From assembly GCA_963815115.1 (NCBI GenBank), contig CAWFFN010000012.1:352001-416000 (forward strand): a DNA stretch of 64,000 nucleotides, read 5' to 3'. The position numbers and the translations under genes were made by a program. This document shows positions 21,276 to 25,520 of the stretch, piece after piece. Numbering within the stretch: the first letter of the stretch is position 1; every line of letters starts with the position of its first letter. Source of the DNA: an uncultured delta proteobacterium (GTDB lineage Bacteria; Desulfobacterota; Binatia; DP-6). The notes beneath the pieces are model-generated. The model saw only the letters and a program-made list of their open reading frames with translations. It was not told the origin of the DNA and ran no database searches.

Positions 21276-22259
21276 TCACAGCTCGAGGGTCGGAACGGAG
21301 ACCGGCAGCCCCGTCGCCGCGGAGTGCATGCACGCCTCGGCGATCAGCACGGCGCGTGCGCCGTCCTCGGGGGTCACGGGAGGCCGCTCATCGTGCAGCA
21401 CGAGGCGGGCGAAGGCGCGCACCGCCTCGCGGACCGTGGCCGCCGCTTCGCCGAGGGCCACCGGGGTGCGCTCGAGGCCGCGCACCGTGTGCAGCCAGTG
21501 CTGTTGATGATCGCCGACGATCTGACCGCCGCGGCAGGCCGCGTCGACCAGCCCCGAGCGCCCCGCGGTCGCGCGCGAGCCGCCCACCGCGACCAGCGCG
21601 TCGTTCGACGCGAGCTCGAGGGTGGCGAGGAAGTTGTCCTCGGTGCGGACCGTGACGGCGCGAGCGGTCCGGCACCACACCCGCGTCACCTCGGCGCCGG
21701 TCAGCCAGCGCACCAGGTCGAAGCTGTGCACCCCGGTGTGGAGGAGGATGCCGCCGCCGGAGAGCTCCGGCCGGTCGAGCCAGTCCAGCGGAGACGGCTC
21801 GAAGCGCTGGTTGACGACCAGGGCGCGGAGCGGACCCAGGTCGGCCAGCCGCTCCCGCAGCGCACGCACCACCGTGTTCCAGCGCAGCGTGTGCGCCATC
21901 AAGCACGGGATGCCCGTCGCACGGACGCGCCGGACGATCACCCCGGCGTCGGCACCGCTGGTCGCCAGCGGCTTCTCGATGAGCAACGCCTTGCCGGCCG
22001 CGGCCACGGCCTCGACGATCGGCCGGTGCAGCGCGGGGGGTACGACGGCGACGACGCCCTCCACGGCGGGATCGGCGATCAGCGCATGCCATTCGGCGTG
22101 GAAGCGACACCCGAGCTCGCTCGCCTGGGCGGTGCCTCGCCTTGCGTCGTGACGGCTCAGCGCGACGAGGCGCAGCTCCGGGATGTCCGAACGGATGTGG
22201 TGCAGGTAGCGCTGGCCATGCTTGCCGGCGCCGATCAGGCCGACGGGGAACGGCGGCAT
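21276..22259 (-). CDS. Gfo/Idh/MocA-family NAD(P)-dependent oxidoreductase
   Basis: GLIGAGKHG, LLIEKPLA, GGGILLHTGVHSFD. Confidence 0.88.
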   Translation of the reverse strand: MPPFPVGLIGAGKHGQRYLHHIRSDIPELRLVALSRHDARRGTAQASELGCRFHAEWHALIADPAVEGVVAVVPPALHRPIVEAVAAAGKALLIEKPLATSGADAGVIVRRVRATGIPCLMAHTLRWNTVVRALRERLADLGPLRALVVNQRFEPSPLDWLDRPELSGGGILLHTGVHSFDLVRWLTGAEVTRVWCRTARAVTVRTEDNFLATLELASNDALVAVGGSRATAGRSGLVDAACRGGQIVGDHQQHWLHTVRGLERTPVALGEAAATVREAVRAFARLVLHDERPPVTPEDGARAVLIAEACMHSAATGLPVSVPTLEL

Positions 22260-22299
22260 CTAGACGACCGGCACCCGGATGTGGCGCACGGCCGATCCG

Positions 22300-23418
22300 T
22301 CACGCCGCGAGGCGTCCGGCGAGTCCGGAGAGGCGGCTGCGTGTGCTGCGGTCGCCGAGGCCGGCGGCGCGGCAGCGTTCGAGGTAGTCCGCGATCGCGC
22401 CCGCGAACCAGCGGCGGGCGAAGCTGCTGCCGCGCGCCAGCGCCTCCTGCTCGCGGGAGCCGGCCGCCAGGAGCACGAGGGGCTCGAACCACTCGGTGCT
22501 GCCCGCGATGCCGACCACGGTGTGCTCCGTGCGGTCGAGATACTCGTTCAGCACGGCGCTCTTCTCCGGCTGGTGCGCCAGATGGTAGCGGACATGTGCG
22601 ACCCCGTAGGCCACCGAGCGGGCGACGTCCTGGAGCGAGAGCGTGGCGAGCAGGCGATCGGCTCGCGTGCGCGCGAGGGCGGCGAGGGCCCGGTACATGG
22701 CGAGCGCGAAGCTGCCGAGGAGGAGGTTCGTCGCCAGCGAGGCCTCGGGGTAGGTCTCGGCCGAGAGGAGCTCCTTCAGCGCCTGCTCGGCGGATACGCT
22801 CGCACGGCCGAGACCGCGGCCGCTCACCAGGGCCCGCTTGCGACAGGCCTCGACGTGGCGCGCCTCGTCGAACATCTGCACGCAGAGGAAGCTCTTCAGC
22901 TCGAGGAACTCCTGGTTGATGACGAACACCCAGCGTCCGGGCGCCTCCATCGCGACCAGCGCGACCTCCTGGAGCACGGTGCAGAGCTGCGCGACGGCCG
23001 CCTCGCGCAGCTCGTCGGCCGGAGCGACGGGCGCGAGCAGCTCGCTCCACGGCACGTCGACCGCCGGTGCCCAGCGGCGCGCCTTCGCTTCCTCGTAGAG
23101 CGCGCAGACGTTCTCGGACCAGACGTCGCTCTTGCGGTTGATGGTGTAGCCGAGGTCGGGAAGCTTCGGCACCAGCACGCTGCCGCGCGACGCCATGCTG
23201 TTGCGGTTGCGGACCAGCTCCGGAATGGAATCGTAGCCGTAGGGGCCGAGGTTGCAGTCCTCGTAGGTCAGCCCGCGTGCGGCATCCGCCGGCCGCGCCT
23301 GCAGGCGGGCGGTCTCGACCCCGTACCACTCGAGGGTCAGGTTGCCCCCGAGGATGCTCGTCACCAGCTCGATCAGCGCCGGGTCGTCGAAGAAGTCCTT
23401 CTCGGCGTAGTACGCCAT
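22300..23418 (-). CDS. ferritin-like protein with degenerate diiron site (candidate non-catalytic beta subunit)
   Basis: 372-aa paralog of 23419-24537; keeps one DEARH; the other ligands are replaced (E>A, E>G, DEARH>DVARS). Confidence 0.8.
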   Translation of the reverse strand: MAYYAEKDFFDDPALIELVTSILGGNLTLEWYGVETARLQARPADAARGLTYEDCNLGPYGYDSIPELVRNRNSMASRGSVLVPKLPDLGYTINRKSDVWSENVCALYEEAKARRWAPAVDVPWSELLAPVAPADELREAAVAQLCTVLQEVALVAMEAPGRWVFVINQEFLELKSFLCVQMFDEARHVEACRKRALVSGRGLGRASVSAEQALKELLSAETYPEASLATNLLLGSFALAMYRALAALARTRADRLLATLSLQDVARSVAYGVAHVRYHLAHQPEKSAVLNEYLDRTEHTVVGIAGSTEWFEPLVLLAAGSREQEALARGSSFARRWFAGAIADYLERCRAAGLGDRSTRSRLSGLAGRLAA

Positions 23419-24537
23419 TCAGGCGGCGGCCATGGTGAGCTCGACCATCTTCCAGAGCCGGGAGCGCTCGCGCCGCTCGGGAAGGCCGCACTTGGCGAGC
23501 CGCTCGAAATACTCCTCGGCCTGCTGGAGCTGGAACATGTTCTGGATGCGGATGCCTTCCGCGATCTGCTCCTTCTTGGTGCCCTTGCCGGCGAGGATGA
23601 TGAACGGCTCCATCACCTCGGTGGCATAGCCGGCCCCGAAGACGAAGTTCTCGGCCTCGTCGAGATGACGATGGATCGTCTCGCGGCGCTCCGGGAAGTG
23701 GTCGAGCACCCATTTCAAATGCTGCATGCCGTAACCCACGTGCCGTGCCTCGTCCTGCATGACCAGCCGGAAGAGCTTCTTGTCGCCGTCGGTGGGTGAG
23801 ACGTACTCGCTGAACCGGAACAGCGTCAGCACCATGCCCTCGGCCTGGAGATGCAGGGTGAGCGACGCCTCGGCGAAGCTGTCGGCGTCGCGCAGGAACT
23901 TGAGATTGTGCTCGTTGTGCTGGCTCGCGCGCATGAGGCCGAAGCCGGTGGAGAGCGCCCGCTTGCGGAAGATCTCGGCGTGGCGCGCCTCGTCCATGGC
24001 CTGCGTGGCGATGAAGTTCTTGACCTCGAAGAAGTCGGCGTTGAGCCGTCCCATCCACTTGGCCGGGACGTCGGTCGCGATCATCTCGACCTCGGTCAGG
24101 AAGGTGAGCAGCTGGGCGTAGGCCTTGCCGATGTCGTCGGGAAGCTCGGTCGCGAGCAGATCGGACCACGGGATGTCGGTGGTCGCGTTCCACTGCCGGG
24201 TCATGGCCTCCTCGTAGTAGCCCTCGAGATTGTAGGCCCAGACCTCGCTCTTGCGGTTGACGTCGGCCTGGAGGTCGGGAAGGCCCTCCGGCTGCTCCGC
24301 GCCGCGCGGCGCGAAGCTCCGATTCTGCCGGATCACCTCGGGCATCTCCGAGTAGCCGTAGCCGGCGACATCGAGGTCGCGGAAGGTGAGGCCGCGGCGC
24401 TCGTTCTGCGGCCGGCAGCGCACGCGCTCGCGCTGGGCGTCGAGCCACGACAGATCGAGGTCGCCCTTCAGCCGGCGCTCGAGGCCGTCGAGAAACGCCC
24501 GGTCGTCGCTGAAGTCGGTGGTGGCGAGGTAGCTCAT
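23419..24537 (-). CDS. ferritin-like diiron protein with complete ligand set (candidate catalytic alpha subunit)
   Basis: AAGGAG RBS, ATG 24537; TEVEMIA, MDEARH, QAEG, QDEARH; 372 aa. Confidence 0.85.
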   Translation of the reverse strand: MSYLATTDFSDDRAFLDGLERRLKGDLDLSWLDAQRERVRCRPQNERRGLTFRDLDVAGYGYSEMPEVIRQNRSFAPRGAEQPEGLPDLQADVNRKSEVWAYNLEGYYEEAMTRQWNATTDIPWSDLLATELPDDIGKAYAQLLTFLTEVEMIATDVPAKWMGRLNADFFEVKNFIATQAMDEARHAEIFRKRALSTGFGLMRASQHNEHNLKFLRDADSFAEASLTLHLQAEGMVLTLFRFSEYVSPTDGDKKLFRLVMQDEARHVGYGMQHLKWVLDHFPERRETIHRHLDEAENFVFGAGYATEVMEPFIILAGKGTKKEQIAEGIRIQNMFQLQQAEEYFERLAKCGLPERRERSRLWKMVELTMAAA

Positions 24538-25025
24538 GTGCCGCTCCTTCTGGCGGGCTCGGCCCGACGTGGCGGGGCGGAGCCATCGGGATACGCAAAG
24601 TCGACTCCCGCCGAGAGGTCGAAGAACTCCTGGATGCTCTCGGCGAAGCGATAGAGCTTGTCGTGGCCGTCGGGGTCGTCGTAGCGCACCTGCAGGGACT
24701 CGCCGAAGTGGGTCAGCGTGTTCAGGCTGTGCGCCGCGTCGGCGGCGCCGAGGCGGTGGATGGCGTCGAACATCTCGCGCCACGCCGGCAGCGGGCCCTC
24801 GAGCACGAAGTCGGGAGCCACCCCGTCGAGCCCCTCGCGCACGGCCACGCAGTCGAACACCTCGAAGCCGAGCACGCCCTCGTAGAGCGGCTCGCCGCCG
24901 GCACCGAGCACGCGAACCGCGAAGGTCGTGTCGAAGAAGCCGAGACGCCGGAAACGCTCCTGCGCACCGCGCATCTCTGCACGAAGCGACTCGAAGAAGG
25001 CGAGTGATGGAAAGTGGACGGGCAT
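24534..25025 (-). CDS. hypothetical protein, SCP2 (sterol carrier)-like fold suspected
   Basis: N-terminal [10 protein letters not shown] and [14 protein letters not shown] resemble SCP2-like proteins; stop overlaps the next ATG (ATGA). Confidence 0.6.
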
Positions 25026-25058
25026 GCGCACCCCGCGGTGGCGACGACTCCTCGCATC

Positions 25059-25088
25059 GGATTAGTCCGCCCCGTGCGGACGTGTCAA
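25059..25088 (-). promoter_or_regulatory. putative promoter of the SCP2-like/diiron operon
   Basis: TTGACA-N18-TAATCC. Confidence 0.4.
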
Positions 25089-25166
25089 TCGAACGCCGCA
25101 GGGTTGCAACGGGCTCCCCCCGGCGCTAGGAGAGGCCGGACCTCGACCCCCGTCAGGGAGACCGCG

Positions 25167-25520
25167 ATGGCGTACATCATCACCAGACTCTGCCGAGACT
25201 GCCTCGACACCGGCTGCGTGGCGGTCTGTCCCGTCGACTGCATCTACGAGTACACCGGGTCCGATCGCGAGCAGTGGCCGGCCCAGCTCTACATCCATCC
25301 CGACGAGTGCATCGACTGCGGTGCCTGCGAGCCCGAGTGTCCCTGGCAGGCGATCTTCGAGGAGGTCGCGGTCCCCGACGTCTTCAAGGACGACACCCCG
25401 CTCAACTACGCCATGATGGAGCACACCGCCGAGTTCAAGGTCGCGGCGACCAAGAAGGTGGAGCACCCGACGGCGGAGCAGGTGGCGGCCAACAAGGTCA
25501 AATGGGGCTGGTCGGGCTGA
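25167..25520 (+). CDS. dicluster ferredoxin (Azotobacter FdI/FdxA-like 7Fe type)
   Basis: [17 protein letters not shown] and [25 protein letters not shown]. Confidence 0.92.

Follow-up and report, generated by a model that had tools for sequence, protein, structure and literature searches.

A 64,000-nucleotide stretch of DNA from an uncultured delta proteobacterium of the Binatia (contig CAWFFN010000012.1, positions 352,001 to 416,000; hereafter the window, G+C ~70%) contains a tight run of minus-strand genes, the first three of which form a conserved module. These encode a small protein with the fold of sterol carrier protein 2 (SCP2), referred to here as the SCP-like protein, and two ferritin-like paralogs, A and B. 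A has a full set of dimetal ligands, and B has lost much of this set. The closest public relatives of the locus are in metagenome-assembled genomes (MAGs) labelled Candidatus Binatia, Thermodesulfobacteriota or delta proteobacterium. An earlier note, made from the sequence by itself, had proposed that A and B form a diiron oxygenase served by the SCP2-like protein, a dehydrogenase and a ferredoxin; the module found here is narrower.

Conservation of the module is apparent from two surveys. With A as the query, 72 genome loci were obtained, and 49 of these were evaluable, i.e. they had at least 1.7 kb of upstream and at least 1.3 kb of downstream DNA. In the 33 evaluable Binatia-type loci, where A is at least 69% identical to that of the window, B is present in 32 and the SCP-like gene also in 32; in the 13 Myxococcota-type loci (A 50–57% identical) the counts are 13 and 12. 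The three distant actinobacterial loci (A ~40%) have no B, and one has the SCP-like gene. Over all evaluable paired-type genome loci, B lies beside A in 45 of 46 and the SCP-like gene beside the pair in 44 of 46. As this first set of loci had been chosen through A, the search was repeated on metagenome contigs with B as the query. Among the best 80 of 316 loci, with B 57–93% identical to that of the window, those with enough upstream DNA have A adjacent in 57/57 cases and the SCP-like gene in 42/43. Recurrence in 72 genome and 80 metagenome loci argues that the arrangement is not a chance one. The gene order is SCP-B-A in the Myxococcota-type loci as opposed to SCP-A-B in the Binatia type, which suggests selection on the set and not inherited synteny.

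The surveys also show that the intact and the degenerate copies co-occur with the same kind of ligand loss, which the earlier note had put forward as a check of its proposal. B-type sequences were recognised by their identity, independently of the ligands, and 0/43 from genome loci and 0/80 from metagenomes carry a full ligand complement. In neither survey was B found mostly alone or with its ligands complete.

The putative metal ligands of A lie in the motifs TEVEM (E149, E151), DEARH (E183, H186), QAEG (E233) and a second DEARH (E263, H266). A thus has the four-helix core and the E, ExxH, E, ExxH ligand pattern of the ferritin-like/R2-like superfamily, and the six diiron ligands previously ascribed to it are present in all 61 A-type sequences (61/61). 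The AlphaFold model of A, with a predicted local distance difference test (pLDDT) value of 92.5, has an R2-type ferritin fold, to which is added an N-terminal arm of ~100 amino acids (aa) that is common to A and B. R2lox and Chlamydia NrdB lead the Foldseek matches of this model, and VlmB is also present. VIA, a fold search independent of Foldseek, gives Z scores of 24.3 for the VlmB homolog 6d9f, 23.1 for aldehyde deformylating oxygenase (ADO), 22.6 for R2lox (4hr0) and 21.8 for the ribonucleotide reductase (RNR) R2 protein; the phenol and methane hydroxylase subunits are at ~21, PaaAC at 16.7, BoxB at 15.6 and AurF/CmlI at 14.6–15.3. When a profile of 55 family members was compared with PDB sequences, the VlmB homolog was found at 4e-10 and R2lox at ~3e-8. 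Because the fold and profile scores place A near R2lox, ADO and VlmB, A is best regarded as a distinct branch near this group.

Sequence families give no closer assignment. A matches no Pfam family over its cutoff, there being only weak matches to DUF455, RNR R2 and rubrerythrin. In the Pfam search neither A nor B matches PF11583, and neither reaches the cutoff of any Pfam or NCBIfam model of PaaA/C, phenol/methane hydroxylase or R2lox. Relatives of A are nevertheless numerous: they form 2560 clusters at 90% identity, the best 120 being 74–97% identical to A, and clustering at 50% identity leaves 817 at E<=1e-3, with 102 of them down to 1e-30. Database names for these proteins are limited to ‘ferritin-like domain-containing’ or ‘hypothetical’. 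The ESM Atlas yields unnamed clusters only, and in the nearest of these half of the proteins bear PF11583 (AurF).

A and B, both of 372 aa, align by BLASTP over 363 columns with 39% identity (E 8e-91). This, together with an invariant motif in the arm, bears out the earlier description of two paralogs of equal length with a shared N-terminal arm, and the identity to A suggests that B is ferritin-like in fold. The motifs of B are QEVAL, DEARH, LLLGS and DVARS, a series that departs from the ligand pattern of the superfamily. B had been described as retaining one ExxH and no other ligand. The depletion and the retention of the first ExxH hold, but the first Glu of the E-V-E of A is retained as well, and B has therefore lost three or four of the six ligands, depending on which Glu of E-V-E binds metal. 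In the Myxococcota-type B the first ExxH is also lost. Relative to three close loci, the ratio of nonsynonymous to synonymous substitutions (dN/dS) is 0.19–0.20 for B, 0.08–0.125 for A, 0.13–0.15 for the SCP-like gene and 0.15–0.18 for the dehydrogenase gene, values that are rough owing to low dS and to the extreme codon usage of 70% G+C DNA. There are 57 invariant columns in 31 B sequences, and these include the shared arm motif. With this ratio and these invariant columns B is not decaying; it is under purifying selection and is no pseudogene.

That the first gene of the module encodes an SCP2-like protein had been a guess from the sequence, and two fold searches now substantiate it. The AlphaFold model (pLDDT 87.9, from a 25-row alignment) has as its top Foldseek matches the Thermus SCP2 structures 1wfr and 2cx7, with E values of 4e-6 to 1e-5 and TM scores of 0.68–0.73 by target. 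VIA aligns 125/130 residues with 2cx7_B (Z 12.1, root-mean-square deviation (rmsd) 2.9); its first nine rows are all SCP2 proteins, with eukaryotic SCP2 and UbiJ-SCP2 coming after Thermus. At the level of sequence the protein has no Pfam, NCBIfam or PDB-sequence match, and the Pfam SCP2 models match 0 of 25 family members at E<=1. The family has 1660 relatives, and among the 120 listed none has a Pfam domain and all but one of the named rows are ‘hypothetical’. Residues W82, D117, D122, R126 and Q132 are kept across all three gene layouts found (see below). C59 and H106 vary across the layouts, which argues against a metal site in this protein.

There is also a form of the system that has no B. 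A search with B of 151 genomes of the window's class, at a threshold of 1e-40, matched 62 genomes (one, G282, unpublished); 36–37 of these have a true B and ~25 have the single-copy type only, which is 34–42% identical to B. Twenty of ~42 single-copy places (L153–L172) were then picked regardless of their neighbours. All 20 proteins have the full ligand set, and in 20/20 loci the next gene downstream, on the same strand, is an SCP2-like open reading frame (ORF), with profile E values of 1e-28 to 1e-38. In six sampled genomes the single-copy form is present alongside the A/B trio. There are thus three layouts, SCP-A-B, SCP-B-A and A′-SCP′. With an SCP2-like gene downstream of every sampled single-copy relative, the invariant pair is that of the R2-like and SCP2-like proteins; it is the SCP2-like protein and not B that is the universal partner, which is a new observation. 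A luciferase-like monooxygenase gene was seen near five of the 20 single-copy loci.

The history of the duplication was approached with a maximum-likelihood IQ-TREE tree of 54 rows, a quick search only, with sequences from 22 hand-picked loci of the 72, nine database proteins and an AurF-like neighbour protein as outgroup. In this tree the A clade and the B clade, each with a value of 99 in the Shimodaira–Hasegawa-like approximate likelihood ratio test (SH-aLRT), are sisters (88), and both lineages are found within each. Ligand-complete single-copy proteins from Actinomycetota, Chloroflexota and Dehalococcoidia MAGs are outside A+B. The tree suggests a single duplication, after which B lost its metal site, both events predating the acquisition or divergence of the module in the two lineages.

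Several departures from the standard arrangement were noted. In four loci (L018, L020, L043 and L044) A and B are separated by 2.1–2.8 kb; the insert in L018 (7354–8565) encodes an AAA_21/AbiEii-type ATPase (1.9e-27). In another four (L029, L031, L038 and L041) the trio, with A ~70% identical, is on contigs titled as Klebsiella pneumoniae or uncultured Enterobacteriaceae MAGs. L031 clusters with the Binatia-type rows in the tree, and the taxonomic labels of these four bins look wrong. Two proteins that form one-member clusters, P0026 (538 aa) and P0048 (526 aa), read as the SCP-like sequence joined to A. SCP-A fusions were considered as Rosetta-stone evidence and set aside: only five long proteins match the SCP profile, all in one-member clusters, and a frameshift or faulty gene calling across the ATGA overlap is their probable origin.

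The genes of the locus and its surroundings are given in Table 1, where the ORF coordinates of the earlier note are retained unchanged.

Table 1. Genes of the SCP-A-B locus and its neighbours in the window
Feature	Coordinates	Strand	Basis
SCP2-fold small protein, 163 aa, first gene of the module	24534–25025	minus	fold model; no sequence-family match
A, R2-like ferritin-fold protein, 372 aa, putative catalytic subunit	23419–24537	minus	ligands, fold model
B, ligand-depleted paralog of A, 372 aa, putative non-catalytic partner	22300–23418	minus	BLASTP to A
Gfo/Idh/MocA NAD(P)-dependent oxidoreductase, accessory fourth gene	21276–22259	minus	Pfam
FdxA-type dicluster ferredoxin, divergent neighbour, module membership doubtful	25167–25520	plus	Pfam Fer4, NCBIfam
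PNPOx_N-domain gene	20318–21226	plus	2e-25
AurF-like diiron protein (P0006) and TetR regulator	18607–20251	minus	PF11583 (P0006)
Glutamine synthetase, P-II and ammonium transporter run	26967–30587	minus	translations; GlnA synteny in L002

The close coupling described for the minus-strand run from the SCP-like gene to the dehydrogenase gene is plain from the sequence: the SCP-like stop codon overlaps the A start codon in ATGA, with GAAGGAG upstream; the ATG of B abuts the TGA of A with a gap of zero; and 40 nt lie between B and the Gfo/Idh/MocA gene. For the SCP-like gene, ATG 25025 is the most probable start, in preference to GTG 25031, because its homologs begin MxVxFPS. The ferredoxin gene starts at ATG 25167, 141 nt from the divergent SCP-like gene. 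A promoter/terminator scan of 21000–25700 gave no promoter-like and one terminator-like site, which matches chance expectation. Contigs from a soil RNA library, 90–95% alike, bridge the B/A (23315–23604) and A/SCP (24232–24647) junctions; they stem from relatives, and since a contig proves neither transcription nor a single transcript they are a weak hint. Matches from sequencing runs are all soil or peat metagenome contigs, each covering small shares of the stretch.

The dehydrogenase has the two domains of the Gfo/Idh/MocA family (PF01408 at 2.9e-18, PF22725 and PF02894, all over cutoffs), as had been proposed for it. It matches no equivalog-level NCBIfam model over cutoff, and the solved structures nearest to it are those of inositol or sugar dehydrogenases of a generic kind. 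Its standing as a partner of A and B is borne out in part. It is frequent in near relatives, occurring after B in 36/45 metagenome loci (33/33 where B is at least 70% identical, 3/12 below this value), but it is dispensable, with 16/29 Binatia-type and 1/12 Myxococcota-type genome loci having it in this position. The dehydrogenase is therefore an accessory partner.

The ferredoxin, which the earlier note had included as the reductant of the enzyme, has a doubtful place in the module. It matches the Pfam Fer4 families, and NCBIfam FdxA models at 9e-24 (NF045480) and 6.5e-21, both below cutoff. Among genome loci it is adjacent only where A is at least 82% identical (9/36 Binatia-type, 0/14 Myxococcota-type), and in the closer metagenome loci it is found in 18 of 25. 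It is always on the opposite strand, 598–2015 nt from A, with hydrolase or glycosylase genes intervening in some loci, and the genome loci that have it also keep synteny with the TPR and GlnA genes. It is also the sole full-length FdxA-type gene of the genome. As it is lineage-local and the only gene of its type, the ferredoxin looks like a housekeeping neighbour, one that may still donate electrons.

Beyond the dehydrogenase lies a second diiron protein gene, for the AurF-like P0006, which matches PF11583 over cutoff (1.6e-9, 37.8 bits vs 29.6) and has ~7 paralogs in the genome with 25–53% identity; the stop codon of the TetR regulator gene overlaps the start region of the AurF-like gene. Eight close relatives have the TetR and AurF-like genes immediately after the dehydrogenase gene and on its strand. 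The PNPOx_N gene that lies between dehydrogenase and TetR in the window, on the opposite strand, is a local insertion or rearrangement, as the close loci L001–L011 have no such gene there. On the other side, the glutamine synthetase run adjoins a TPR/zinc-ribbon gene.

What might the module do? The explanation that we favour, with a confidence that stops somewhat short of even, is that the SCP2-like protein, A and B constitute a heteromeric dimetal hydroxylase that activates O2 and acts on a hydrophobic substrate with a long chain. The three proteins would make up one soluble enzyme. A would be the catalytic subunit, binding two metals (Fe/Fe or Mn/Fe) by four carboxylates and two histidines and activating O2. 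B, a duplicate of A without the metal site, might serve as a structural partner, in the position that a second copy of the protein had in an ancestral homodimer. The SCP2-fold protein would most likely hold a long hydrophobic molecule, perhaps an alkane, a fatty acid or acyl chain, or an isoprenoid lipid, and present it to A, which would hydroxylate or otherwise oxidise an aliphatic C–H bond. Where the Gfo/Idh/MocA enzyme is present it could oxidise the alcohol product, and electrons might come from the general ferredoxin pool and not from a dedicated reductase. Metal binding, the A–B heterodimer, docking of the SCP2-fold protein, the class of substrate and the type of reaction are what we infer; the data themselves establish how the genes are laid out and conserved, where ligands are kept or lost, that selection is purifying, which folds are present and how the duplication arose.

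Work on R2lox offers some precedent. R2lox is reported to co-purify with a fatty acid (PMC9314684), and in haloarchaea it is reportedly clustered with ferredoxin and sterol-carrier-protein genes and induced by hexadecane (cited in PMC9314684). GkR2loxI is reported to be an alkane monooxygenase (PMC10867098). Binatota have been described as alkane degraders, via other enzymes (PMC8262859). A minority of the neighbouring genes also speaks for such a substrate, being of lipid or acyl-CoA type (enoyl-CoA hydratase in five loci, SDR in five, thiolase in three). A bolder proposal, which we consider rather doubtful, is that there is an unrecognised class of dimetal hydroxylases in which an SCP2-fold carrier is an obligate subunit feeding hydrocarbons or lipids to an R2lox-like subunit, and that one branch of this class has become a fixed alpha/beta heterodimer with a dead paralog. 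If so, the module might represent a missing route of long-chain alkane or lipid oxidation in the abundant uncultured Binatia and Myxococcota of soil, and might give the long-debated R2lox clade a physiological context.

A number of points weigh against a lipid hydroxylase. The ligand Glu in E149-V-E151 could be either E151 or E149. Past the trio the neighbourhoods are highly variable and offer no pathway context: unrelated neighbours include Smr, HhH-GPD, MFS, SpoU, GST, hydrogenase, type II secretion system (T2SS) ATPase and AAA ATPase genes. Across the 72 + 80 loci the module has no conserved companion gene for a reductase or coupling protein, and because of this catalytic turnover is not assured. 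The SCP2 fold by itself reveals no ligand. By both sequence and fold the best match is the VlmB homolog (6d9f/8wvr), an azoxy synthase that acts on small molecules and no lipid enzyme. The contacts of A with B and with the SCP-like protein are ones that we infer; complex predictions for A, B and the SCP-like protein, with the last as partner, scored 0.47, 0.37 and 0.47, but a control with an unrelated protein in place of A scored 0.84, and the predictions therefore count on neither side as to binding. All family members are known from sequences of uncultured organisms alone, and the roughness of the dN/dS values given above is to be counted here as well. The function of R2lox is itself disputed (PMC9314684).

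Two other explanations, both improbable, deserve the most attention. The first is that A and B, in the manner of PaaABC or BoxB, hydroxylate or epoxidise an acyl- or aryl-coenzyme A (CoA) thioester, with the SCP2-like protein binding acyl-CoA or, in the way of PaaB, bridging the subunits. The composition matches, with a catalytic copy, a paralog devoid of ligands and a third, small protein, and SCP2 domains bind acyl-CoAs. The enoyl-CoA hydratase genes are spread over three lineages, and in L042 the gene is directly upstream of the SCP gene; thiolase and SDR genes occur together in three actinobacterial loci. This hydratase link, however, concerns only five of 72 loci, and no PaaD-/PaaE-like or CoA-ligase gene is conserved. 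Although PaaAC and BoxB are among the fold matches of A, their scores (Z 16.7 and 15.6) are well under those of R2lox, ADO and 6d9f, and there is no PaaA/PaaC Pfam match at E<=1.

The second, to which we give a similarly small share of belief, is that the SCP2-fold protein is an effector or gating subunit of the MmoB type, which controls the access of O2 or electrons, in which case the substrate might be any small molecule. The strict coupling of the SCP-like gene to an R2-like gene in all three layouts would suit such a role, as would the partly polar character of the conserved residues (W82, D117, D122, R126 and Q132), which could form a protein–protein interface. Its top fold matches, on the other hand, are all lipid-binding SCP2 proteins, UbiJ-SCP2 included, and there is no MmoB-type fold among the matches listed.

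It is less probable still, and we would call it unlikely, that the module has no turnover at all and that A is a ferritin-like protein which, like R2lox, would bind a ligand, sense redox state or give protection by handling peroxide or iron, its metal site acting a single time or never. The weak rubrerythrin and DUF455 matches and the lack of a conserved dedicated reductase are compatible with this, and R2lox is reported to carry out a single self-modification, its role being debated (PMC9314684). Yet the strong conservation of A, a dedicated SCP2 partner and a dead paralog that has been kept are hard to square with storage or detoxification, and the residues at the R2lox Val-Tyr crosslink positions are here Ala and Leu/Met, in a register taken from spacing. 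Least probable, to the point of being very unlikely, is a role in secondary metabolism, with A acting on small molecules as an N-oxygenase or azoxy synthase like VlmB, AurF or CmlI, a role for which the VlmB homolog is the best profile match (4e-10, Z 24.3) and the nearest ESM Atlas cluster is half PF11583, but against which stand the lack of a PF11583 match in A itself, the lack of a biosynthetic gene cluster around the module in any locus examined, the 70–92% identity of A class-wide amid housekeeping-type neighbours, and the fact that no VlmB-type system is known to require an SCP2 partner.

The hydroxylase reading and its rivals bear on wider questions. Dimetal-carboxylate oxygenases carry out some of the hardest C–H oxidations in biology, and their R2lox branch is without an agreed function. 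The module is also widespread, not only by the number of A clusters: of the 151 species sampled in the class, ~37 have both A and B, and a further ~25 have the single copy only. The fixed pairing of an R2-like protein with an SCP2-fold protein provides a concrete hypothesis of substrate delivery in three small soluble proteins. If the module is a lipid or alkane hydroxylase, the annotation of hydrocarbon and lipid turnover in soil metagenomes would change and a new biocatalyst scaffold would be at hand; if it is not, a retained dead paralog and a carrier-fold partner still make up an unexplained architecture.

The literature search found no paper that describes an SCP2-A-B module, and a search on diiron proteins, SCP2 and operons returned only the UbiT/UbiJ paper. 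A survey of soluble diiron monooxygenases (SDIMO) has no mention of ‘R2lox’, ‘sterol’ or ‘ferritin-like’. The main text of the Binatota genome paper has no ‘ferritin’, ‘diiron’ or ‘sterol’, and its supplements may list such genes (PMC8262859). Family models and database names likewise do not match the pair to a characterised enzyme system.

A number of known systems nevertheless resemble the module in part. UbiJ-SCP2 and COQ7/COQ9 share with it the idea of a lipid-binding protein that hands a greasy substrate to a hydroxylase, and the fold searches with the small protein list UbiJ-SCP2, but there is no sequence relation to the module. The diiron protein COQ7 is small and membrane-associated, and the fold of COQ9 is a different one. 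Myxococcota are menaquinone organisms, and a role in ubiquinone synthesis is thus unlikely in these hosts. PtmU3 has a non-ferritin fold. On this basis AibH1H2, a heterodimeric Mn/Fe hydroxylase that is reported to be related to PtmU3 (PMC10029006), was rejected as a relative.

The earlier note had remarked that the usual partners of the MmoX and PaaA families are missing, and the Pfam results, protein sizes and operon content all speak against membership in these families. PaaA/PaaC/PaaB is similar in that a catalytic ferritin-like subunit is joined by a metal-free paralog and a small third protein. It differs in that neither A nor B has a PaaA_PaaC Pfam match (E<=1), in the lower Z of 16.7 (to 3pvr_B) and in the partners PaaB, PaaD and PaaE, which are absent from the module operon (SCP-like, A, B and Gfo/Idh/MocA only); moreover, PaaB is not known to have the SCP2 fold. 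Soluble diiron monooxygenases also have paralogous metal-bearing and metal-free subunits, and the N-terminal stretch of A aligns with MMOH, phenol hydroxylase and ToMO from about residue 34–45 (Z 20.5–21.5). Their alpha subunits, however, have ~500 aa compared with 372 for A, there is no Phenol_Hydrox Pfam match, the fold similarity is generic, and no coupling protein, gamma subunit or FNR-type reductase is found in or near the module operon.

The closest resemblances are to the VlmB homolog and to R2lox. The former (‘Protein 60’; PDB 8wvr, 6d9f) has the best scores, with 260 residues aligned at an rmsd of 3.0, and has the helix-2 DEARH motif in common with A. The identity is ~20%, however, and the match is restricted to A residues 101–363; in addition, VlmB is a single subunit from a natural-product cluster that acts on a polar hydrazine substrate, with no known SCP2 partner or dead paralog. 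R2lox, a homodimer that is not known to have a degenerate paralog, has the R2-type ferritin fold (Foldseek E ~1e-5, TM 0.66–0.69 by target) and a six-residue dimetal site. Its hydrophobic fatty-acid ligand, its reported association with SCP and ferredoxin genes and the alkane claim can also be counted as likenesses (PMC9314684, PMC10867098). But A is only 18–20% identical to R2lox, has the extra N-terminal arm and falls far below the R2lox NCBIfam models (NF006200, 28.7 bits vs 194; NF006202, 15.2 vs 315). In place of the Val-Tyr crosslink, A has an invariant Ala154 (helix-1 Glu +3) and Leu/Met228 (helix-3 Glu −5), positions that follow from spacing, the hidden Markov model (HMM) alignment to R2lox being shifted in the crosslink region. 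Taken with these systems, the module is a distinct, as yet unnamed branch within a known superfamily and has its own subunit architecture.

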